Assembly (NCBI GenBank): GCA_963844875.1 | Contig: CAWJPZ010000005.1 | Location: forward strand, 24,681-88,680 | Direction: 5' to 3' | DNA: 64,000 nt | From: an uncultured Acidobacteriota bacterium | GTDB taxonomy: Bacteria > Acidobacteriota > Vicinamibacteria > Vicinamibacterales > Fen-181 | Shown: in pieces, positions 3,056-21,113 of the stretch | Layout: every line of letters starts with the position of its first letter | Numbering within the stretch: the stretch's first letter is position 1 | Position numbers and translations under genes: made by a program | Notes under the pieces: model-generated | The model's database searches: none | What the model was told of the DNA's origin: nothing | The model's input: the letters and a program-made list of their open reading frames with translations, nothing else

Positions 3056-5314
3056 GTGACCGAGCAGCCCTTCACGATCGTGCCGACCGGGTGCGCCCAC
3101 AACTGCGGGGGCCACTGCGTGCTGAAGGTCTGGGTGCGGGACGGCCGAATCGAGCGGATCACGACCGACGACCGGCCGGACCTGCCCGACGACCCGCAAC
3201 TGCGTGCCTGCCCACGCGGCCGCGCCTATGCCCGCCGCGTCTACCATCCCGATCGGCTGCTGCACCCGATGAAGCGCGTGGGGCCTCGCGGGGAGGGGCG
3301 GTTCGAGCGCGTCTCGTGGGGTGAGGCGCTGGACCTGGTCGCCTCGGCGATGCTGCGGGTGAAGGACGAGCACGGCCCGGACGCCTTCCTGAACATGCAC
3401 GGCACCGGCGGCGCGAGCCTGTTCTCCGGCAGCCGGATGTCGGAGCGCCTGCTCAACGTCTTCGGCGGACAGCTGAATCACTACAATTCCTACAGCTCGG
3501 CGGCGGCACGCTGGGCGACACCGTTCAGCCTGGGCACCGACGACAGCGGCAACAGCCCGGACGACTGGCTGCGCTCCCGGCTGATCCTGCTCTGGGGCTA
3601 CAACCCCGCCGAGACCGTGTTCGGCACCAACACCAGCTACCGGCTGAAGCTCGCGCGGCAGGCCGGCGCGCGGATCATCGTCATCGATCCGCGCTTGAGC
3701 ATGACGGTGCAGGCGCTGGCGGACGACTGGGTCCCGCTGCGCCCCGGGACCGACAGCGCGCTCATGGACGCGATGGCGTTCGTCATGATCAGCGAAGGCC
3801 TTCACGACCAGGCCTTCCTGGACCGCTACTGCGTGGGGTTCGACGACGATCACCTGCCGGAGGGCGCGGGGGCGGGGCCGTCGTACCGCAGCTACGTGAC
3901 GGGGCGCTCGGACGGTGTCGCCAAGTCGCCTGCCTGGGCCGAGCGCTACACCCAGGTGCCGGCCCGCCGCATCGAGCAACTCGCCCGCGACTACGCGACG
4001 ACGAAACCGGCGGCGCTGCTCGCCGGCCTGTCGTTCAACCGGCGCGCCTTCGGCGAGCAGCCGGTGCGCGGGACCGTCACGCTCGCCGCCATGACGGGCA
4101 ACATCGGGATCCCCGGCGGTTCGGCCGGGGGCGTGTCGTACTCGGTGGCGCGTCCGCTCCCGGTCGGCGACTTTCCGCGCGGGGTGAATTCGGTGACCGC
4201 GTCCATCCCGGTGTTCCGTTGGACGGATGCGATCGTCAGGGGCACCGGGATGGGGGCGGGCGACGGCGTGATCGACCTGCCGCCGGGCCGGCGGACCCTT
4301 CGCAGCAACGTCAAGTTCCTGTTCAACGTCGCCGGCAATACGCTCGTCAACCAGCACGCGAACATCAACCGCACGGTCTCGATCCTGCGTGACCCCGCGC
4401 TGGTGTCGCACATCGTGGTCGTCGACCACTTCCTGACGCCCAGCGCGCGGTTCGCCGACGTCGTGCTGCCCGCGACGATGTGGCTCGAGAAGAACGACGT
4501 CTGCACCATCTGGGGCCACGGCGATTCGCTCATCTTCATGAACCAGGCGATCGCGCCGCTCGGCGAGTGCCGCTCGGACTACGACATCTGCGCCGGGATC
4601 GCGTCACGGCTCGGAGTCGGGGAGGCGTTCACCGAGGGCAAGTCGGAGCTGCAGTGGCTCGAACAGATGGTTGCCCCCGCGGCCGCCGCCGACCCGTCGT
4701 TCCCGGGATTCGGGGAATTCCGCCGCCGAGGCGTTCACGTCTTCCGCTACGCCCGGCCGCACGTGGCCTTCGAGGCGTTCCGGGAAGACCCGGACGCTCA
4801 CCCGTTGGGCACGCCGTCCGGCAAGGTCGAGATCTACTCGGCCCGTCTCGCGGCGATGAACCTGGCGGGCGTCCCACCGATTCCCACGTTCATCCCCGAG
4901 TGGGAGGGCGGGCCGTGGGACCCGCTCTTCGAGCGGTATCCGCTCCAGGCGTTCGGGCGGCACTACCAGCGCCGCACGCACTCGATTTACGACAACGTCG
5001 ACTGGCTCGAGGAGTCGCAGCCGCAGCGCATGTTCATCAATCCGATCGACGCGGCCGCCCGCGGCCTCGAGGACGGCGACGAGGCGCGCGTGTTCAACGC
5101 CCGGGGCGAGCTCAGGATCCGCGTCCGCATCACCCGCCGGATCATGCCCGGCGTGGTGGACATCCCGCAGGGCGCCTGGTGGTCGCCGGGTCCCGACGGC
5201 GTCGACCGCCGGGGGAACATCAACGTGCTGACGTCGGAGCGGCCGACGCCCGGCGCACGGGGCAACGCGCAGCATTCGAACCTCGTGCAGGTCGCCCGGG
5301 TGGGGAGACCGTAG
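3056..5314 (+). CDS. Molybdopterin oxidoreductase, DMSO-reductase family catalytic subunit (DmsA-like), no Tat signal
   Basis: 752 aa. It has an N-terminal Fe-S motif CAHNCGGHC, a DmsA-like YNSYSS segment (Ser Mo-ligand region) and molybdopterin-binding domains. It begins MTEQPFTIVPTGC with no twin-arginine leader. Confidence 0.85.
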   Translation: MTEQPFTIVPTGCAHNCGGHCVLKVWVRDGRIERITTDDRPDLPDDPQLRACPRGRAYARRVYHPDRLLHPMKRVGPRGEGRFERVSWGEALDLVASAMLRVKDEHGPDAFLNMHGTGGASLFSGSRMSERLLNVFGGQLNHYNSYSSAAARWATPFSLGTDDSGNSPDDWLRSRLILLWGYNPAETVFGTNTSYRLKLARQAGARIIVIDPRLSMTVQALADDWVPLRPGTDSALMDAMAFVMISEGLHDQAFLDRYCVGFDDDHLPEGAGAGPSYRSYVTGRSDGVAKSPAWAERYTQVPARRIEQLARDYATTKPAALLAGLSFNRRAFGEQPVRGTVTLAAMTGNIGIPGGSAGGVSYSVARPLPVGDFPRGVNSVTASIPVFRWTDAIVRGTGMGAGDGVIDLPPGRRTLRSNVKFLFNVAGNTLVNQHANINRTVSILRDPALVSHIVVVDHFLTPSARFADVVLPATMWLEKNDVCTIWGHGDSLIFMNQAIAPLGECRSDYDICAGIASRLGVGEAFTEGKSELQWLEQMVAPAAAADPSFPGFGEFRRRGVHVFRYARPHVAFEAFREDPDAHPLGTPSGKVEIYSARLAAMNLAGVPPIPTFIPEWEGGPWDPLFERYPLQAFGRHYQRRTHSIYDNVDWLEESQPQRMFINPIDAAARGLEDGDEARVFNARGELRIRVRITRRIMPGVVDIPQGAWWSPGPDGVDRRGNINVLTSERPTPGARGNAQHSNLVQVARVGRP

Positions 5315-10881: not shown

Positions 10882-11187
10882 ATGGTCCCGCAGAACGCCG
10901 TCATCGTCTGGCAGCTGTTTGGGTTCGTGGAGGAGGTGGACTGCTACTTCGTGCGGAGTCCCCGCGACTTCACGCTCACCGTCGAACGCGCCGGCGAGCG
11001 GCTGGCGGAAGAGCGTTATTCGAGCCTTCACGAGACGATCGCCCGGGCGCGCGAGATGAAGCGCGACCTCATGGACGTAGGATTCAAGGCGGTCCCGCTC
11101 GCAGAGACGGAACCCGGCCTGGAGTCGCTGCTCCGGCAATTCGTGCGTGAAGGCACCACGCACCTCCACGCCGTCCCCGGCGCCTGA
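10882..11187 (+). CDS. Hypothetical protein (about 101 aa)
   Basis: Third-position GC is very high throughout, and AAGGAG lies upstream. I recognise no family. The start is uncertain (10849 or 10882). Confidence 0.45.
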   Translation: MVPQNAVIVWQLFGFVEEVDCYFVRSPRDFTLTVERAGERLAEERYSSLHETIARAREMKRDLMDVGFKAVPLAETEPGLESLLRQFVREGTTHLHAVPGA

Positions 11188-11215
11188 TCTCCTTTCGCTG
11201 CCGGGGCCGATTCGC

Positions 11216-11221
11216 TATGAT
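11216..11221 (+). promoter_or_regulatory. Candidate -10 box TATGAT, 6 nt before the ATG (possible leaderless mRNA)
   Basis: TATGATgcgggcATG. There is no Shine-Dalgarno sequence between the hexamer and start 11228. Confidence 0.3.
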
Positions 11222-11227
11222 GCGGGC

Positions 11228-12230
11228 ATGACGCCCGCCACCCCGCTCACCCCGCTCACCCCGAAGACCCTGATGGACCTGGCGACCGCGTTTCAGCGGA
11301 GCCGCCCCCTCCTGACCGCATTCGAACTCGGCCTGTTCACCGCGATCAACGGCGAGGAGCGCACCTCCGCGGAAGTGGCGGAGGCGCTCGGCACCGACCC
11401 GCGGGCCACGGACCGCCTGATGAACGCGCTGGCGGCCATCGGCCTGCTCGAGAAGAGCGACGGTCGGTTCCGCAACACCGCCGTGGCCGAATCGCACCTC
11501 GTCAAGGGGCGCCCCGACTACATGGGCGGCCTCGGGCACACCAATCACCTGTGGGACACCTGGAGCCGGCTGACGGAGGTCGTGCGCGAAGGGCATCCCG
11601 TCGGCCTGGCGGACACCAACGACCGCGGCGACGACTGGCTGCGCCCGTTCATCGCCGCCATGCACACCCGCGGCCGCCAGTCGGCAGCCGAGGTCGTCGG
11701 CTTGCTGAATCTCGACCGCGTGTCGCGTGTCCTGGACGTGGGCGGCGGGTCCGGGGTCTACGCGATGGCTTTCGCGCGCGCCGGGCGGGGCATTTCCGCG
11801 GTGGTGTTCGACCTGCCGAACGTGATCCCCCTCACGCGCATGTACGTCGCGCAGGAGGGGCTGTCGGCCGAAGTGACCACGGCCGCGGGCGACTACCTGG
11901 CCGCTCCGCTCGGCGAGGCGCTTCGACCTCGTCTTCATGTCCGCGGTGATCCACAGCAACGCGGTCGATGACAACCGGCTGCTCTTCAAGAAGGCGGCGC
12001 AGGCGCTGAATCCCGGGGGGCAACTCGTCGTCCAGGATTTCCTCATGACCGAGGAGCGCGACGGCCCGCTCATGCCCGCGCTGTTCGCGCTGAACATGCT
12101 GGTGGGGACGCCCGAGGGAGACACGTTCACCGAGTCCGAGGTGCGGACGTGGATGCTCGATTCCGGCTTCGAATCGATCGAACGCACGGACACGAGCTTC
12201 GGCACGAGCCTCATCGTCGGGCGGCGGTAG
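11228..12230 (+). pseudogene. Class I SAM-dependent O-methyltransferase (dimerisation domain plus Methyltransf_2 type); one frameshift
   Basis: It has an N-terminal winged-helix dimerisation region and the SAM motif VLDVGGGSGVYA. The frame changes near 11908-11915 (...LGEA|FDLVFMSAVIHS...), joining ORFs 11147..11971 and 11937..12230. Confidence 0.75.
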
Positions 12231-12240
12231 CAGGGGACCC

Positions 12241-12504
12241 ATGGAGCCCGGAGCGCTCTGGCAGCACGCCTCGGAGATCCTGCGTGGGATGGCCCTCGCG
12301 CGCCACGAACGGCAGGTGCGTGCGGAGGCGATCGAACTCCAGGACCTCTTCCTGCTGCTCTGTTTCATGGACGTGATGGGGCTGCCGAACCCGGCAGCCC
12401 TCTACCTGGTGGACCTGTACCCCTACCTGCTCGAGGAGTTCCACCTCTGGCACCGCAGGATGGGCGTCGACAGGTCGCCGCTCGCGACCTTCTCCTGCTG
12501 CTGA
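12241..12504 (+). CDS. Small conserved-looking protein ending in Cys-Cys-stop
   Basis: 87 aa with high GC3, ending ...SPLATFSCC*. It lies 3 nt upstream of the ArsA-like ATPase. I recall an NCBI family name of this kind ('cory-CC-star'), but cannot verify it here. Confidence 0.55.
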   Translation: MEPGALWQHASEILRGMALARHERQVRAEAIELQDLFLLLCFMDVMGLPNPAALYLVDLYPYLLEEFHLWHRRMGVDRSPLATFSCC

Positions 12505-12507
12505 ACC

Positions 12508-13476
12508 GTGCGTCACCTCCTGTCCCGGCACATCCTGTTCTTCGGCGGCAAGGGCGGCGTCGGAAAGACAACGTGCGCGGCGGCGTTCGCGCTGGCGGCC
12601 AGCCGGATGGGCCGTCGCGTCCTGCTCGTCTCGACAGACCCGGCGCACTCGACGTCCGACGTCCTTGGCGTCGAGCTCTCGGCCGGCGAGCGCGAGATCC
12701 TGCCCGGCCTGTTCGGGGTCGAGGTGGACGCCGACACCGAAGCGCGGCGCTACCTGGACGAGGCGAAGGAGCGGATGGCAGGCCTCTTCAGCCCGGGGGT
12801 GTTGAAGGAGGCCGCACGCCAGATCGAACTCACCGCCGCCATGCCGGGGGTGGCCGACGTGGCGCTCTTCGACCGGATGTCGCGGTTGATCGCCGCCGAC
12901 GCCAGCCGTTACGACCTGGTGGTGTTCGACACGGCCCCGACCGGCCATGCCCTGCGCCTGCTGCGGATGCCCGAGCTGATGGGCACCTGGGTCCAGGCGC
13001 TGTCGGCCCGGCGGCGCGAGTCGCACGCGCACGCGGCGGACGGAACGGGCGGGCTCGCCGACCCGGGGCCTGCCGGCAATCAGCGCGACCCGGTCCTGGA
13101 GATACTGGAGGCGCGTATGGCCCGCCTGTCGGCCGTTCGCACCGAGTTGACGGCCGGGGACCGGGTGGCCTTCGTGCTCGTTCTGATCCCCGAGAAGCTC
13201 CCGATCGAAGAATCGGCGCGGGCCGCGCACGCGCTGGCGGAGGCCAACATCCACCTGGGGGCCATCATCGTCAACCGTGTGCTGCCCGACGAAGCGGAGG
13301 GCAGCTACTTCGAGGCGCGGAAGGCCCAGGAGCGGGTGCACCTGGCCGAGATCGACCGTCGGCTGCCCGCCGTGGCGCGGGTGTTCGTCCCGCAACTCGA
13401 ATCCGACGTGAGCGGATTCGCCAGCCTGGAGCGGATCGGCCGGTTCCTTGTGGATGAATCGGCGGGCGACAGGTAG
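12508..13476 (+). CDS. ArsA/Get3 family ATPase (single-domain, 322 aa)
   Basis: It has the deviant Walker A GGKGGVGKTT and the signature DTAPTGHALRLL, with a GTG start. Confidence 0.85.
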   Translation: MRHLLSRHILFFGGKGGVGKTTCAAAFALAASRMGRRVLLVSTDPAHSTSDVLGVELSAGEREILPGLFGVEVDADTEARRYLDEAKERMAGLFSPGVLKEAARQIELTAAMPGVADVALFDRMSRLIAADASRYDLVVFDTAPTGHALRLLRMPELMGTWVQALSARRRESHAHAADGTGGLADPGPAGNQRDPVLEILEARMARLSAVRTELTAGDRVAFVLVLIPEKLPIEESARAAHALAEANIHLGAIIVNRVLPDEAEGSYFEARKAQERVHLAEIDRRLPAVARVFVPQLESDVSGFASLERIGRFLVDESAGDR

Positions 13477-13479
13477 AAT
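13474..13479 (+). promoter_or_regulatory. Candidate -10 box TAGAAT upstream of argR
   Basis: aggTAGAATacg lies 29 nt before ATG 13509 and overlaps the stop codon of the ArsA-like gene. Confidence 0.3.
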
Positions 13480-13508
13480 ACGCGGCGAGTGCGACGTTCG
13501 AGGGTCGA

Positions 13509-13962
13509 ATGACGAAGACACGGCGACAGACATTGATTCTCGAACTGGTGGACCACGAGGAGATCACCAGCCAGGAGGTGCTGCAGCGGCGGCTGCGCAC
13601 CCGCGGCGTCCATGCCACTCAGGCCACGCTCTCCCGCGACCTCAAGGAACTCGGGCTCGTGAAGCGCGCCGGCGACGGCGCCTACAGCCGGCCGGGCCAG
13701 GATTCGCCCAACGTACGAACTCGCTCTCGTGCAGTTGCAGCGTGTGGCGGTGCGCTCGCTCACCCGAACCGCCCGGGTGGACCAACTCGTGGTCCTCCGG
13801 ACTCCCCCCGGTGAAGCCCAGCACCTCGCGCTGGCCATCGACCGCACGGCATTCCCCGAAGTGGTCGGGACGATCGCGGGCGACGACACGGTCCTCGTGA
13901 TCGCGGGCGGCAGCAGGGAAGCGGCCGCCTTCCTCGAACAGCTCGAGAAACTCACGCGCTGA
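13509..13962 (+). pseudogene. argR: Arginine repressor ArgR; one frameshift
   Basis: The N-terminal winged helix is [31 protein letters not shown]. The C-terminal oligomerisation domain (...[19 protein letters not shown]...[12 protein letters not shown]) is in another frame, with a shift at a CCC run near 13707-13712. Confidence 0.85.
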
Positions 13963-14020
13963 ACGACATTCGCACTCGCCCCCTCTTGCGGCGGCTGCGG
14001 AGGGCCGCGGATGTAATAGT

Positions 14021-14047
14021 TATGCATTAGACTGCATAATGATGCGA
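14021..14047. promoter_or_regulatory. Candidate ArgR operator (ARG-box-like 18-bp palindrome TATGCA-N6-TGCATA plus ATGCGA)
   Basis: TATGCATTAGACTGCATAATGATGCGA ends 39 nt upstream of argG. The arms are perfect inverted 6-mers, and it overlaps a CATAAT -10-like hexamer. Confidence 0.55.
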
Positions 14048-14085
14048 GGCGGCGGCCGCCTGTCGCCGTCCGAGGGGGAGACGAG

Positions 14086-15381
14086 ATGGAACGTATCGTG
14101 TTGGTGTACTCCGGGGGGCTGGACACGTCGGTCGCCATCCCATGGCTGGCCGAGACTTACGGGGCCGAGGTCGTCGCGGTCACGATGGACCTTGGCCAGG
14201 GCGAGAACCTCGACTCGGCGCGGGACCGCGCGCTGGCGACCGGCGCGGTCAACGCGTACGTGATCGACGTCCAGCAGGAGTTCGCGCAGGACTACATCCT
14301 CCCCGCGCTCCAGGCCGGCGCCATCTACGAAGACAAGTACCCGCTGGCGACGGCGCTCGGGCGGCCGCTCATTGCCAAGAAGCTCGTCGAGATCGCGCAC
14401 ATCGAGCACGCCACCGCCATCGCGCACGGCTGCACCGGCAAGGGGAACGACCAGGTGCGCCTCGACGTGTCCGCGCGTGCGCTCGACCCGGGGATCAAGG
14501 TCTACGCCCCGGCCCGGGTGTGGGGCATGACGCGGGCCGACGAGATCGAATACGCGCGCGTGCGCGGCATCTCGGTCCCGGTGACGAAGGAGAGCCCGTA
14601 CAGCACCGACGAGAACCTGTGGGGCCGATCGATCGAGTGCGGCGTCCTCGAGGACCCCTGGGAAGAGGCGCCGGAAGACGCCTACTCGCTCACCCGGTCG
14701 GGGGCGGACTGTCCCGACCTGCCCGCCTACCTCGAGTTGGCGTTCGAGGCGGGAGTTCCGACCGAGGTGAACGGCGTGCCGATGCCGCTCACCGAGCTGA
14801 TCGACAGCGTCGCCACCATCGCGGGCGTGCACGGCGTCGGGCGGATCGACATGGTCGAGAACCGGCTGGTCGGGATCAAGTCGCGCGAGATCTACGAGAC
14901 CCCGGCCGCGGTCGTCCTGCATGCCGCCCATCGGGAACTCGAGGCGCTGGTCACCCCGAAGGACCTCATCCGGCTGAAGCGCGAACTGGGCATCAAGTAC
15001 GCCGACCTGGTTTACAACGGCCTCTGGTTCAGCCCCATGCGGCAGGCCATCGATGCCTTCGTGGCCACGATGCAGCCGCAGGTCACCGGGCAGGTCCGGC
15101 TGCGCCTCTTCAAGGGGGAGTGCCGGGTGGTCGGGCGGCGATCGCCCTTCGCCCTCTACGACCATTCGCTGGCGACCTACGACAAGGGCGACGCGTTCGA
15201 CCACACCGCGGCCGAAGGCTTCATCAAGTTGTGGGGGTTGCCGGTCGAAACGGTGGCGCGTCAATCCGCGAAGCTGGGGTCCGCCAGCCCCATGTCGCGC
15301 GCAGCGGTCGCCGTTGGCGTGACGCGCGCGGCCGCCGGTCACCCGAGGGCGGCGGTGGTCGCCGACTGGGTCGGGCTCTAA
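14086..15381 (+). CDS. argG: Argininosuccinate synthase
   Basis: MERIVLVYSGGLDTSV is the ATP-PPase motif, and the protein is ArgG-like throughout. The last ~35 aa (low-complexity, Ala/Gly/Val-rich) look atypical, so the true stop may be earlier. Confidence 0.9.
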   Translation: MERIVLVYSGGLDTSVAIPWLAETYGAEVVAVTMDLGQGENLDSARDRALATGAVNAYVIDVQQEFAQDYILPALQAGAIYEDKYPLATALGRPLIAKKLVEIAHIEHATAIAHGCTGKGNDQVRLDVSARALDPGIKVYAPARVWGMTRADEIEYARVRGISVPVTKESPYSTDENLWGRSIECGVLEDPWEEAPEDAYSLTRSGADCPDLPAYLELAFEAGVPTEVNGVPMPLTELIDSVATIAGVHGVGRIDMVENRLVGIKSREIYETPAAVVLHAAHRELEALVTPKDLIRLKRELGIKYADLVYNGLWFSPMRQAIDAFVATMQPQVTGQVRLRLFKGECRVVGRRSPFALYDHSLATYDKGDAFDHTAAEGFIKLWGLPVETVARQSAKLGSASPMSRAAVAVGVTRAAAGHPRAAVVADWVGL

Positions 15382-15388
15382 CCGCCGT

Positions 15389-16817
15389 ATGGCCAACTTG
15401 TGGTCCGGCCGGTTCGGCAGCGAGCCCGATCGAGACGTCTTCGAGTTCGGACGGTCTTTCCCGTTCGACCGGCGCCTCTTCGAGGACGACGTGCGCGGCA
15501 GCCTCGCCTGGGTGGAGGCGATTGCCGAAGCCGGGGCGATCGAGCCGGCGGACGCCCGCGCGATTGCCGAGGGGCTGCGCGGGATCCTCGACGACGGCTT
15601 GCGGTCGCCCGGCTTCCTCGAGGGCGACGACGAGGACGTTCACGCGTTCGTCGAGCGGAAGCTCGTCGAGCGGGTGGGAGAGGTGGGGAAGCGGCTCCAC
15701 ACCGGCCGCTCGCGCAACGAGCAGGTCTCGGTGGACCTGCGGCTGTACCTGAAGCGCCGCATCCCGGCCATCCAGGCCCGGCTCGTCGCCCTCGCCGCCG
15801 CCCTGGCCGGGCAGGCGGGATCGGCCGGCGACGCCACGATGCCGGCTTATACGCACCTCCGGCGTGCCCAGCCGGTCCTGGTAGCGCATTTCTGGCTCGC
15901 GCACGCCGCTGCCCTGCGGCGCGACGACGACATGTTCTCGTTCGCGGGCTCCACCGCCGACGCGCTGCCGCTCGGCTCCGGGGCGGTAGCCGGCACGAGT
16001 TACGCGCTCGACGTAAAGGTCGCTCGCCCGCCGCCTCGGGTTCTCGCACATCGCCCTGAACAGCATCGACGCGTCGTCGGATCGCGACTTCGTCTCGGTG
16101 TTCCTCCACGCGTGCTCGCTGGCGATGGTGCATCTCAGCCGGCTGTCGGAGGACCTCGTCATCTTCACCGGAGAGGAGTTCCGCTTCTTCGAGCTCTCGG
16201 ACGCGGTTTCAACCGGCAGCAGCCTGATGCCGCAGAAGAAGAACCCCGACCCGCTGGAGTTGATCCGCGGCAAGGCGGGCCGCGTGATCGGCCGCCACAC
16301 CGGCTGGCTGACGACGATGAAGGGGCTGCCGGCGGGGTACAACAAGGACCTCCAGGAAGACAAGGAGGCCGTGTTCGACGCCGAAGCGACGGTGGGCGCG
16401 TCGCTCACCGCCATGGCGACGATCGTGGCCGGGCTGCGGCTGGACGAAGCGCGGGCGCACGCCTGGTCGTCCGGGCTTCTGCTGGCCACGGACGTGGCGG
16501 AGTACCTCGTTGCGCGCGGGATGCCGTTCCGCACGGCCCACGAGACGGTGGGAGCGATGGTCCGTCGGCTGGCGGAGGACGGCCGCGACTTCCAGTCCTT
16601 GTCGGCGGCGGAGTGGGCCTCGTTCAGCCCGCTGTTCCAGCCGAGCGTCGTCCAGGCCGTCACGCCCGCCGCCGCCGTGGCGGCCCGCCGGACGCCGCAG
16701 TCGACGAACCCGGATGCTGTTGCAGCGGCGCTGGCCGAACTTCGCGGGTGGGTCACCGCCCGCTCGGCCGGCTCGCCCGCCAAACCGGCCGGCGACCAGG
16801 GGCCGGCCGGTTCCTGA
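15389..16817 (+). pseudogene. argH: Argininosuccinate lyase; one frameshift
   Basis: It has MANLWSGRFG... and the fumarate-lyase signature GSSLMPQKKNPD. The frame changes near 16016-16022 (...YALDVKV|LARRLGFSHIALNSIDASSDRDFVSVFLHACS...). Confidence 0.9.
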
Positions 16818-16819
16818 AC

Positions 16820-16846
16820 CATGCAGGCCTGTGCATAGATATGCGA
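16820..16846. promoter_or_regulatory. Second copy of the ARG-box-like motif
   Basis: CATGCAGGCCTGTGCATAGATATGCGA has the same block spacing as 14021-14047 (ATGCA-N6-TGCATA-N3-ATGCGA; 18 of 27 positions identical). It ends 32 nt before ATG 16878. Confidence 0.4.
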
Positions 16847-16877
16847 TCCGCCCCGGCGAGGCGGGCGAGGAGACACC

Positions 16878-17105
16878 ATGAGCGATCGGCCCTCCGCGGT
16901 GAACGGGAAGCGCAACAAGTCGTGGGGCACCACCGTCGTCTGCCCGGCGTGCGGACAGTGCCTGTGCTTCGGGTGCCATCCGGCCGGTCCCTGCGTGGAC
17001 GAGAACGCAGGCGACCCGGCCAGCTCCTCCTGCGAGGCCAGACCATTCCACGTCGGCCGCACCTCGAGGTCATCGGCGTCTGGGTGGTACGCGGAGGCTC
17101 GCTGA
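16878..17105 (+). CDS. Small Cys-rich hypothetical protein (75 aa)
   Basis: A strong ribosome-binding site GAGGAG lies 6 nt before the ATG, and GC3 is very high. It carries the motif CPACGQCLCFGCHPAGPC. I recognise no family. Confidence 0.5.
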   Translation: MSDRPSAVNGKRNKSWGTTVVCPACGQCLCFGCHPAGPCVDENAGDPASSSCEARPFHVGRTSRSSASGWYAEAR

Positions 17106-17145
17106 CCGCCAACAGTTGAGCCTAGAACAATGGGCTGTCCGCGAC

Positions 17146-17151
17146 TATGAT
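17146..17151 (+). promoter_or_regulatory. Candidate -10 box TATGAT, 7 nt before ATG 17159 (possible leaderless start of the MFS gene)
   Basis: TATGATgtcgcgcATGGCC. If this is real, the MFS protein starts MAHSSSAP at 17159 rather than 17147. Confidence 0.25.
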
Positions 17152-18412
17152 GTCGCGCATGGCCCATTCCTCGTCCGCGCCAGCCGTCGCCCTGCCGACC
17201 CGGTTTCCCGTACGCACGTGGCTGATCTCGCTCGCCGGGTGGATGTTCGACTTCTACGACCTGGTGTTGTTCTCCTTCCTGCTCGTGCCGATCGGCAACG
17301 AGTTGAAGATGACAACCGCCGAAGAGGCGACGCTGCTCGGCGTGGCGCTTGGCGGTTCGGGGATCGGGGGGATCATCTTCGGGTACCTCTCCGACCGCTA
17401 CGGCCGGCGCAACGTGATGACGTGGACGATCCTGCTCTACTCGATCGGCACCGGCCTCACGGGGTTCGCCACGGGGTTCTGGTCGATCCTGGGGTTCCGC
17501 CTGCTGACCGGGCTTGGTGTGGGCGGGGAGTGGGCGGTGGGGCACGCGCTGCTCGCCGAATCGTCACCGAAACACATGCGGGGGCGCGCGTCGGCGATGC
17601 TCCAGGCGGGCGAGCCGATGGGCGTCGGCCTCGCCGCGGTGATGGGCTTCGTCGTCGCGCCGATCATCGGCTGGCGCGCCGTGTTCTTCGTCTCTGCGGC
17701 CTCGGCGCTCATCGCGTTCGTCGTCCGCAAGCACCTGCCCGAGTCGAACCTCTGGGAGAAGCAGCGCGAGGCGCACCTGTCGCCCGCGGAAGCGCTTGCG
17801 CACATCGTCCGCTACCGCCTGGTGGGGGTGACGCTCAAGGGCTTCGTGCTCGCCGTGCTGAAGCTGGGGACCTACTGGACCTGTTACACCTGGCTGCCCA
17901 AGTTCCTCCAGACGCAGATGCACCAGCCCATCGGACGCTCGGTGCTGTGGATGCTGACCGCGCAGCTGGGGCAGTTCACCGGGATGCTGCTCTTCGGCTA
18001 CCTCGCGGATCGGTACGGGCGCCGGCTCCTCTTCACGCTGTATTCCGTCCTCACGGCGGCGTCGATCTTCCCCCTCGCTTTTTACTGGCAGGAGCTGCTG
18101 CCGCACCCTGTCCTGTTCTGGGGCTGCTTCCTGGGCCTCGGGCTCGGTTCTGGATGCACCGCCGGCTTTGGCGCGCTGCTCGCCGAGCTGTTCCCGACCG
18201 ACATCCGCAACTTCGCGATGGGGACCACGTACAACACCGCGCGCGGCATGCAGTTCTTCGCACCGTTCGTGGTGAGTTACTTCGTCGCCACGCACGGGAT
18301 GGCCGGCGGCCTCGCGGTCCCGCTGGTACTGGCGCTGTGCACGGCCATGTGGGTGTGGACGCTTCCCGAGACCCGGCACCGGAACCTGGCGGAGATAGGG
18401 AAGGGCCGCTGA
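17147..18412 (+). CDS. MFS transporter
   Basis: 421 aa with 12 predicted TM segments and the MFS loop motif GYLSDRYGRRNVM, repeated as GYLADRYGRRLLF in the second half. Confidence 0.85.
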   Translation: MMSRMAHSSSAPAVALPTRFPVRTWLISLAGWMFDFYDLVLFSFLLVPIGNELKMTTAEEATLLGVALGGSGIGGIIFGYLSDRYGRRNVMTWTILLYSIGTGLTGFATGFWSILGFRLLTGLGVGGEWAVGHALLAESSPKHMRGRASAMLQAGEPMGVGLAAVMGFVVAPIIGWRAVFFVSAASALIAFVVRKHLPESNLWEKQREAHLSPAEALAHIVRYRLVGVTLKGFVLAVLKLGTYWTCYTWLPKFLQTQMHQPIGRSVLWMLTAQLGQFTGMLLFGYLADRYGRRLLFTLYSVLTAASIFPLAFYWQELLPHPVLFWGCFLGLGLGSGCTAGFGALLAELFPTDIRNFAMGTTYNTARGMQFFAPFVVSYFVATHGMAGGLAVPLVLALCTAMWVWTLPETRHRNLAEIGKGR

Positions 18413-20550: not shown

Positions 20551-21024
20551 TTATCGAGCAAGCCACTCCGCCATCTGCGTCGCGAGGCAGTCGACGGCGG
20601 CTGCGACCCGCGGTGAAAGCGGCTGGCCCATTTCGAGCGTCGCGGGCTGGATGCCGATCAGCGCCACCTGGCAGCCGAGGTCGGCGGTCAGGTAGGTGGC
20701 CAGCACGGACGGCGGAAGCGTGTGGGTCGAGGCGCTCATGCCGTCGGCGTCGTGCCAGTCGATCCAGGCGAGCGTGCCAGGAGGCTGCTCCTGGTGCGCG
20801 GCGTCCACCTCGACGATCAGGTCGGGACGGAACCGCCGGAGGGGACCGGTGAAGTTCTCGGGCGCCGTGCCGCCGTTGATCAACAGCAGTCCCGGCGTCG
20901 CCGCCAGCTGCGCCGCCAGCGCCTTCACCACGCACACGCCCGCCCCGTCATCGCCATTCATCTCGTTCCCGACGCCGAGCACGGCGACGCGCGCAGGGCG
21001 TGGAGGGAAGGGCAGCGTCTGCAT
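20551..21024 (-). CDS. hycI: Hydrogenase maturation endopeptidase (HycI/HyaD family)
   Basis: It has the VLGVGNEMNGDDGAG motif, is 157 aa, and is the last gene of the hydrogenase operon. Confidence 0.8.
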   Translation of the reverse strand: MQTLPFPPRPARVAVLGVGNEMNGDDGAGVCVVKALAAQLAATPGLLLINGGTAPENFTGPLRRFRPDLIVEVDAAHQEQPPGTLAWIDWHDADGMSASTHTLPPSVLATYLTADLGCQVALIGIQPATLEMGQPLSPRVAAAVDCLATQMAEWLAR

Positions 21025-21029
21025 AAGAA

Positions 21030-21113
21030 GGCTTCAGGCTCCAGGCTTCAGGCTCTGGGCCGCGTCTGGCCCCGGCTCAGGGCCCAGGGCTCAAGCCTCA
21101 AGCCTCAGGCCTG
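21030..21113. repeat. 7-nt-periodic array (12 heptamers), GGCTTCN family, imperfect inverted arms
   Basis: GGCTTCA GGCTCCA GGCTTCA GGCTCTG GGCCGCG TCTGGCC CCGGCTC AGGGCCC AGGGCTC AAGCCTC AAGCCTC AGGCCTG. It fills the gap between the NuoI-like gene and hycI. Confidence 0.85.

Follow-up and report, generated by a model that had tools for sequence, protein, structure and literature searches.

Here we report that two copies of a repeated sequence block in a 64,000-nucleotide (nt) stretch of DNA from an uncultured Acidobacteriota bacterium of the order Vicinamibacterales (hereafter the window) are probably operators of ordinary architecture for the arginine repressor ArgR. One copy precedes argG and the other precedes a small open reading frame (mini-ORF) for a Cys-rich protein of 75 amino acids (aa), which would accordingly belong to the arginine regulon and be repressed when arginine is plentiful. 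What is new is the regulon member; the operator itself is of a known kind, neither new nor lineage-specific. A preliminary description of the window had noticed the repeat and had predicted that the mini-ORF is arginine-regulated. Its observation is confirmed and its interpretation partly supported: the predicted regulon membership finds strong comparative-genomic support, in the conservation of the putative operator upstream of the mini-ORF across loci, while the register of the motif and the claim of novelty are corrected here.

The two 27-mers at issue are TATGCATTAGACTGCATAATGATGCGA (14021-14047) and CATGCAGGCCTGTGCATAGATATGCGA (16820-16846), and they do share the block spacing ATGCA-N6-TGCATA-N3-ATGCGA, of which the 64-kb window holds two exact matches only (14022-14047 and 16821-16846). 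When as many as three mismatches were allowed, dinucleotide-preserving shuffles of the window, which is ~69% G+C, gave a mean of 0.05 matches and none of 100 reached three. The shorter pattern ATGCA-N6-TGCATA has no further exact match within the window. The distances first reported to the downstream starts, 39 nt to argG (14086) and 32 nt to the mini-ORF (16878), are likewise right.

We find that each site is a tandem of two 18-bp boxes with the core TGNAT-N4-ATNCA and an AT-rich centre, set 2 bp apart. The argG operator thus reads ATGTAATAGTTATGCATT-AG-ACTGCATAATGATGCGAG (14011-14048) and the mini-ORF operator GTTCCTGAACCATGCAGG-CC-TGTGCATAGATATGCGAT (16810-16847). Boxes were scored with two symmetrised 18-bp matrices, the first derived from the lineage that carries the mini-ORF and the second solely from relatives that lack it (the relatives-only matrix). 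The elements and their scores are as follows.

14011-14028, no strand assigned: argG operator, ARG box 1, overlapping the -10-like hexamers TGTAAT (14012-17) and AATAGT (14015-20); 18.9 bits with the first matrix, 19.5 bits with the relatives-only matrix.
14031-14048, no strand assigned: argG operator, ARG box 2, starting 2 bp past box 1; 15.9 bits and 15.0 bits.
14021-14047, plus strand: the first element as originally described, running from the right half of box 1 across the 2-bp spacer and through box 2 as far as 14047; in the original register (14021-14038), 14.1 bits and <10 bits.
16810-16827, no strand assigned: mini-ORF operator, ARG box 1, overlapping the argH stop codon and keeping the right half-site ATGCA alone; 0.6 bits with the first matrix, not listed for the relatives-only matrix.
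16830-16847, no strand assigned: mini-ORF operator, ARG box 2, where homologues have TGTATAGTTATGCA, which contains the -10 hexamer TATAGT; 20.0 bits and 18.6 bits.

The symmetrised matrices read nnTG[C/T/A]ATA[A/G][T/C]TAT[G/A/T]CAnn, and give 15-20 bits for the window boxes at 14011, 14031 and 16830. With the relatives-only matrix the three best matches in the window are 14011, 16830 and 14031, and shuffles give 0.4 matches at >=13 bits. The layout of 18+2+18 bp is shared by both window sites and by all 26 operators of related loci. Single-box matches elsewhere in the window (21018, 29514 and 5025) were set aside as noise, there being 7 matches at >=9 bits and 6.1 in shuffles; the weak match at 21018 overlaps the HycI start codon. 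A combined 38-bp matrix was also abandoned in favour of the 18-bp box matrices, as it mixed promoter and operator signal and under-scored the second site of the window. We also noted short tandem heptamer-like intergenic repeats in the window (21028-21110; GGCTTCA/GGCTCCA and CTCAAGC), and repeats of this kind occur elsewhere, as GGGACGA four times in related locus L081 (4863-4900) and as GGGCTTA/GGGCTGA upstream of argG in L017.

The argG site is kept in seven further distinct loci with the gene order of the window, as GTATAGTTATGCA-N6-TG[A/C]ATA-N3-ATGC[G]. Box 1 is conserved as GTATAGTTATGCA in L081, L082, L083, L088, L090 and L095, six related loci share box 2 in the form TG[A/C]ATA-N3-ATGCG, and the N6 differs in every genome. 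In L082 (3382-3521) argG is absent from between argR and argH, and the tandem operator directly precedes argH. Every one of the 23 further distinct loci whose upstream sequence is long enough has the same 38-bp element in front of the mini-ORF, 54-114 nt from its start codon. Conservation extends to columns left free by the search pattern (T at column 3 in 18 of 20, A at column 28 in 19 of 20, T at column 30 in 20 of 20). The only mini-ORF locus without the operator is L088, where a deletion or mis-assembly (at ~3990-4000) joins an internal part of argH directly to the leader of the mini-ORF.

This conservation bears directly on how the repeat is to be divided. The preliminary description took the first copy as a perfect 18-bp palindrome, TATGCA-N6-TGCATA, followed by ATGCGA: a single lineage-specific box with the geometry of E. 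coli and new half-sites. The arms are indeed perfect in the first copy over 6 bp, or 7 bp with the flanking T and A, yet the spacer TTAGAC is not palindromic and the 18 bp as a whole are not a perfect palindrome. The register is ambiguous because ATGCAT is self-complementary, and for the same reason TATGCA-N6-TGCATA loosely fits TNTGAAT-N4-ATTCANA and still earns its 14.1 bits with the first matrix. We read it instead as the right half of box 1 joined to the left half of box 2, the N6 being the variable segment between boxes and the trailing ATGCGA the right half of box 2. Against a single palindrome, the N6 at its centre varies most from genome to genome (TTAGAC, CGTCTG, CAGCCG, CATCAC), whereas its supposed flanks (AGTT on one side, N3 and ATGCG on the other) are conserved and AT-rich in the manner of ARG-box centres. 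With the relatives-only matrix the original register falls below 10 bits, as against 19.5 and 15.0 bits for the boxes of the 18+2+18 layout. L081 and L083 have TGAATA as their second arm, which makes the palindrome imperfect and yet leaves a good canonical box, TGAAT-N4-ATGCG. Nor are the half-sites new or lineage-specific, since TGCAT-N4-ATGCR in the 18+2+18 layout is that of validated Streptomyces ARG boxes (PMC5839063, PMC3293853). We therefore regard the single palindrome as improbable, and retain the tandem pair of boxes.

The mini-ORF and its putative operator occur together in three gene arrangements. In arrangement (a), found in the window and in L081-L100, the order is ArsA-argR-[operator]-argG-argH-[operator]-mini-ORF-MFS. 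In arrangement (b), found in L103, L109/L110, L111 and L112, the order is [operator]-mini-ORF-argR-argG-argH, with no operator between argR and argG. In arrangement (c) the mini-ORF stands alone between a gene for YetF/DUF421 or peptidase S58, which is divergent, and one for aldose epimerase, which is convergent. As the ArgR proteins of arrangement (b) are only 53-61% identical to that of L081, the association of mini-ORF and operator appears to be old. Across 141 kb of mini-ORF loci the relatives-only matrix gave 57 matches, and all 57 fall at the two operator positions: 41 upstream of the mini-ORF, 14 upstream of argG or argH, and 2 upstream of argG in L089. In the arrangement (b) loci, the ARG half-sites present in relatives at -28 and -8 are gone from the promoter proximal to argR (GTGTACACTCG...).

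In 28 other Vicinamibacterales loci argR-argG-argH is kept with neither a mini-ORF nor a box between argR and argG; argR there faces a divergent argC, and the cluster continues with argB, argD and argJ. On 356 kb of these relatives the first matrix gave 82 matches at >=13 bits, 68 of them between argC and argR, no more than 270 bp upstream of argR. These boxes are phased at 20 bp (e.g., -28/-8, -160/-140 and -126/-106) and include the canonical GATGAATAAGTATTCATC and GATGAATAAAAATTCATC. In L001-L027, L040 and L058 one ARG box extends over the argR start codon (e.g., TGTGAATATTTATGAAGC in L016, where ATG is the start), a second box lies 20 bp upstream over a TATACT -10 hexamer, and a distal box pair adjoins the divergent argC. 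The motif thus stands upstream of arginine genes in both groups, at argG (argH in L082) in the mini-ORF lineage and at the divergent argC-argR promoters in the 28 relatives. A box-like match, GGTGCATGAACATGAACC or GATGCATGAACATGAACC, also recurs 5.6-6.5 kb downstream of the argR start, past argH, in L008, L009, L013, L014, L017 and L022, and probably forms part of a conserved gene's coding sequence.

These relatives also speak to the identity of the regulator. The boxes could in principle be bound by another protein than ArgR, possibly by the mini-protein itself, whose gene is co-located with argR in arrangement (b), and a second factor could act at the same promoters. However, the motif is present in the 28 relatives that have argR and lack the mini-ORF. 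In sequence, 18-bp dyad, 2-bp spacing and association with argC, argR, argG and argH it agrees with validated ArgR operators, and the mini-protein has no recognisable DNA-binding fold, the structure models described below being poor. We consider a regulator other than ArgR to be improbable as well, and continue with ArgR as the predicted ligand of the boxes.

Promoter sequences overlap the boxes clearly in the homologues. There, box 1 upstream of the mini-ORF begins with TTGACn, so that the -35 hexamer is also the left half-site, and continues with N4 and ATGCA; box 2 contains TATAGT, TATACT or TATAAT exactly 17 nt after TTGACn. Because TTGACn-17-TATAGT falls within the boxes, the mini-ORF operator of the homologues would overlie a near-consensus promoter of the sigma-70 type. 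At argG, box 1 of the homologues covers TATAGT, and in relatives the -35 hexamer lies 17-18 nt upstream of TATAGT/TATGCT. The corresponding element in the window is as follows.

13986-13991, plus strand: candidate argG -35 hexamer, TTGCGG, homologous to a conserved CTTGCG/TTGCAC in related loci (argR-argG intergenic alignment).

Such overlap might suggest that the shared block is promoter sequence only, a -35, -10 and discriminator read by RNA polymerase or an alternative sigma factor with no repressor involved, and the coincidence of the left box halves with the near-consensus hexamers of the homologues fits that idea. It leaves out the invariant ATGCA blocks in the spacer and just past the -10 hexamer, which sigma-70 does not read, and the window copies, which keep ATGCA, TGCAT and ATGCG despite decayed -35 and -10 hexamers. 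At argG the boxes lie 20 bp further downstream relative to the promoter, and in the relatives the motif recurs at 20-bp phasing, even over the argR start codon. A promoter without a repressor is thus very unlikely to account for the repeat, and we return to the block as a pair of ArgR boxes laid over promoters.

In known systems, repression follows when the arginine-loaded ArgR hexamer binds paired 18-bp boxes, 2-3 bp apart, over a promoter (PMC4381063, PMC3293853). By analogy, the tandem boxes (nnTGNAT-WNWW-ATNCAnn) would offer four half-sites on one face of the helix to four subunits of the arginine-loaded hexamer. Operator 1 (14011-14048) would lie on the -10/+1 region of the argG-argH promoter, with box 1 over the -10 hexamer and box 2 over the start-site region. 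Operator 2 (16810-16847) precedes the mini-ORF, and its counterparts in homologues would place box 1 over the -35 and box 2 over the -10 hexamer. When arginine is plentiful, ArgR on the boxes would exclude RNA polymerase; under arginine shortage, repression would be lifted jointly from argG, argH and the mini-ORF, and probably also from the MFS transporter gene downstream. We infer the binding of ArgR, repression as its effect and the co-transcription of the MFS gene.

Several features of the window weigh against this interpretation. Box 1 of operator 2 retains one half-site only (0.6 bits). The argG -35 and -10-like hexamers of the window are 20-23 nt apart, which leaves its argG promoter uncertain; the hexamers in front of the mini-ORF are poor (-35 TTCCTG, -10 CATAGA); and a consensus scan of 13400-17400 found no sigma-70-like promoter. 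The matrices are partly circular, as the sites of the relatives were chosen with the first matrix, itself trained on the mini-ORF lineage. In the window the mini-ORF may be read mainly from the argG promoter, because the gap between argH and the mini-ORF is 60 nt, a consensus terminator scan of 13400-17400 found no plus-strand terminator between the two, the hexamers are poor and box 1 is half decayed. Transcription from the argG promoter would still place the mini-ORF under the predicted ArgR control. Lastly, were a frameshift seen in argR to be real, the operators of this strain would have to be seen as relics.

The genes of the locus, from which that last point arises, are the following.

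12508-13476: ArsA/Get3-like ATPase (Pfam).
13509-13962, plus strand: argR, arginine repressor; Pfam Arg_repressor (E=2e-18) and Arg_repressor_C (E=4e-21), in two different frames.
14086-15381, plus strand: argG, argininosuccinate synthase; Pfam Arginosuc_synth (E=1e-66) and Arginosuc_syn_C (E=1e-86).
15389-16817, plus strand: argH, argininosuccinate lyase; Pfam Lyase_1 and ASL_C2 on the 3' part.
16867-16872, plus strand: ribosome-binding site GAGGAG, ending 5 nt short of the ATG; homologues keep GCGAGGAG ahead of their start codons.
16878-17105, plus strand: mini-ORF, 75 aa; small Cys-rich family with the core WGTxxxCxxCxxCxCxxCHPxGPC.
17147-18412, plus strand: MFS transporter; Pfam MFS_1 (E=6e-47), with NCBIfam metabolite/H+ symporter families at sub-threshold level only.

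That argR is adjacent to the first site, as originally noted, is borne out by matches to both Pfam domains, and the gene is broken by one frameshift between 13696 and 13721. A tblastn search with the intact 150-aa orthologue of L081 matched the two parts in frames 3 and 1 at 83% and 80% identity. The argH gene likewise carries one frameshift, near 16017: with the ArgH of L081 as query, residues 1-210 matched in frame 2 and residues 210-462 in frame 3, at 81% identity. Both frameshifts are probably indels of a long-read assembly; if real, they would make the strain a carrier of argR and argH pseudogenes. ArgR has the recognition helix TQATLSRDL as well as GDDT, its arginine-site motif. Intact 150-aa ArgR orthologues are found in L081-L083, and they match TIGR01529 (argR_whole) at E=7e-35 and 120 bits, below the cut-off of 130. 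The best database match to ArgG is 75% identical, and by similarity of this protein the window falls in the Acidobacteriota, order Vicinamibacterales.

In every locus of arrangement (a) that reaches far enough, the MFS gene follows the mini-ORF, and on this sequence context the two are probably co-transcribed. A trio of genes for an O-methyltransferase, DUF7990 and the ArsA/Get3-like ATPase always precedes argR in arrangement (a) (11147-13476 in the window; L081-L083), and the relatives without the mini-ORF have argC in that place. With the ArgB, ArgD and ArgJ proteins of L016 as tblastn queries, no match was found within the window, which has none of argC, argJ, argB, argD, argF and carAB. 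A search with the ArgC of L023 gave at least 120 matches, from close relatives of that locus.

On the evidence of its sequence, the mini-ORF is a real, conserved coding gene. The support first claimed for it stands up, with GAGGAG at 16867-16872, a third-position GC of 0.82-0.90 and, from the homologue search that had been proposed, 76 database homologues of 60-119 aa, almost all of them unnamed. Across 23 loci third codon positions vary more (0.30) than positions 1 and 2 (0.135), which indicates conservation at the protein level. The N-terminal 42 residues are nearly invariant (MSDRPSAVNGKRNxAWGTxxxCPACGQCLCFGCHPAGPCVDE) and the tail is variable. Six Cys and one His are invariant within 18 residues (C-x2-C-x2-C-x-C-x2-CH-x4-C), among them a CPxCG knuckle. 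The window protein lacks (at 17040-17105) the C-terminal ...GASGLRMRA...RLR motif of the 92-99-aa homologues in the same arrangement, and no alternative frame restores it.

The family has a narrow distribution. An exhaustive search of 1.84 billion representative proteins with a hidden Markov model returned 20 clusters only, of 48-99 aa except for one marginal match of 1,846 aa (E=3.7e-4), with no informative fusions. The most distant members retain the core WGTxxxCxxCxxCxCxxCHPxGPC alone. They lie (L114 2772-2972, L115 88-261, L116 110-400) in phage-like contigs, where strings of small overlapping ORFs accompany an N6/N4 DNA methyltransferase, or near NifU/IscA-like genes, one of them directly upstream of genes for NifU_N and IscA-like Fe-S assembly proteins. 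These contexts hint at a mobile Cys-cluster module with a possible link to Fe-S clusters. The mini-protein had no match in Pfam, NCBIfam or PHROGs, and the best match of a profile search against the PDB was not significant (E=6.4). AlphaFold2 models from 22 and 74 aligned sequences reached a mean predicted local distance difference test score (pLDDT) of 52 and 58 and gave no confident fold or secondary structure.

What does such a protein do? Metabolite-sensing leader peptides are known in amino-acid operons, and a short ORF immediately upstream of the MFS gene (arrangement a) or of argR (arrangement b) could be a leader of this kind, an attenuator or arrest peptide, and not a functional protein. 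We think this most improbable, as the ORF forms a monocistronic unit that faces a convergent downstream gene in arrangement (c), conservation is concentrated in the first 42 aa, where the six Cys and one His lie, and not at the C-terminus by the stop codon, the Arg codons at positions 4 and 12 vary synonymously, leader RNA in the window folds no better than shuffles (z about -0.2), and the Cys core persists in distant homologues whose gene contexts are unrelated. Leader hairpins in three homologues were only marginally more stable than shuffles. An Rfam search of 13400-17400 gave no match at E<=1, and with no significant leader structure either, RNA elements were rejected. A precursor of a ribosomally synthesised and post-translationally modified peptide (RiPP; e.g., SCIFF or ranthipeptide-like) is disfavoured, as no conserved maturase neighbour was found: the neighbours in the three arrangements (MFS; argR; YetF with aldose epimerase) include no radical S-adenosylmethionine enzyme, cyclase or similar maturase.

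With the mini-ORF taken as a protein-coding gene, its product is most likely, though we infer this weakly, a small, compact protein that binds metal (Zn or Fe-S) and has a role in the metabolism of arginine or in its regulation, because its six invariant Cys and one His are compactly set, with a CPxCG knuckle, and because of its gene neighbours. More tentatively, it may be an unrecognised small metalloprotein that is made only under arginine limitation and acts as a regulator or adaptor of arginine metabolism; we hold this to be possible and rather doubtful. If true, it could modulate ArgR, a pathway enzyme or a transporter, perhaps coupling arginine synthesis to metal or redox state, and it would play in Acidobacteria a part comparable, as a concept only, to that of PirA-like small-protein regulators, with its core module circulating in phage-like contigs.

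Our literature search turned up no description of an ArgR regulon from Acidobacteria, nor of an ArgR-controlled small protein rich in Cys. The predicted regulon would extend textbook ArgR biology to a poorly studied soil phylum and give a handle on an orphan gene for a strictly conserved, wholly unannotated protein of 60-99 aa, a gene which keeps its predicted operator through three independent genome rearrangements, in lineages whose ArgR is 53-61% identical to that of L081. It suggests that arginine regulons of Acidobacteria include a small metal-binding component missed by standard annotation. It also points to arginine starvation or loss of argR as the physiological condition in which to study the mini-protein, and provides a usable ARG-box model for regulon reconstruction in Vicinamibacteria.

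The closest likeness to a known system is with Streptomyces, whose ArgR operators consist of two 18-nt ARG boxes 2 bp apart (PMC3293853) and for which boxes have been validated in S. coelicolor at argG (CTTTGCATGGTCATGCGTAA), argH (TCATGCATGAGTATGCAGAA) and arcB (CGCTGTATAGAAATTCAGAA) (PMC5839063). Paired boxes of this spacing occur at argC in S. clavuligerus and at argC, argG, argH and arcB in S. coelicolor, and as in the window they lie upstream of argG and argH. The half-sites are alike, TGCAT/ATGCR and TGTAT/ATTCA in Streptomyces (e.g., CTTTGCATGGTCATGCGTAA and CGCTGTATAGAAATTCAGAA) compared with ACTGCATAATGATGCGAG in the window and TGTATAGTTATGCA in homologues; those of argG box 2, ACTGCATAATGATGCGAG, are the very half-sites of the S. 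coelicolor argG box. Unlike the Streptomyces system, the one described here belongs to the Acidobacteriota (Vicinamibacterales), is predicted from sequence, and has a predicted regulon that includes an orphan Cys-rich mini-protein.

In E. coli the ARG boxes (TNTGAATWWWWATTCANW) are paired 3 bp apart, or 2 bp at argR, and overlap the promoter (PMC4381063, PMC3293853). The sites of the window resemble them in the imperfect 18-bp dyad, the AT-rich centre, the tandem pair on one helix face and, in the homologues, the overlap with putative core promoter elements, where in E. coli the arginine-bound hexamer represses, and some relatives carry perfect E. coli-type boxes (e.g., GATGAATAAAAATTCATC in L009). 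The one symmetric position at which they depart from the E. coli consensus is 5/14, mostly C/G or T/A and not A/T, and their spacer is of 2 bp. The closest solved structure of the repressor itself is M. tuberculosis ArgR (PDB 3ERE, 3FHZ, 3LAJ and 3LAP; E=1e-26 over 138 residues), which shares with the ArgR of this lineage the recognition helix TQAT[L/I]SRDL and the arginine-site motif GTIAGDDT at ~40% identity overall.

For the mini-protein the comparisons are looser. Small zinc-finger micro-proteins of the CPxCG type and rubredoxin-like knuckles have a CPACG-type knuckle followed by CxxC in 60-100 aa, and the mini-protein resembles the CPxCG micro-proteins in its CPACG knuckle, the CxxC that follows and its similar size, while its packing of Cys and His fits neither a zinc ribbon nor the ferredoxin motif CxxCxxCxxxCP. 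PirA of cyanobacteria, a protein of <100 aa with no enzymatic domain, interacts with PII and tunes the flux into arginine synthesis (PMC8092223). PirA is unrelated in sequence and stands under the control of NtcA/NsiR4 and not of ArgR, and the likeness is one of concept only, that of a small protein tied to arginine synthesis.

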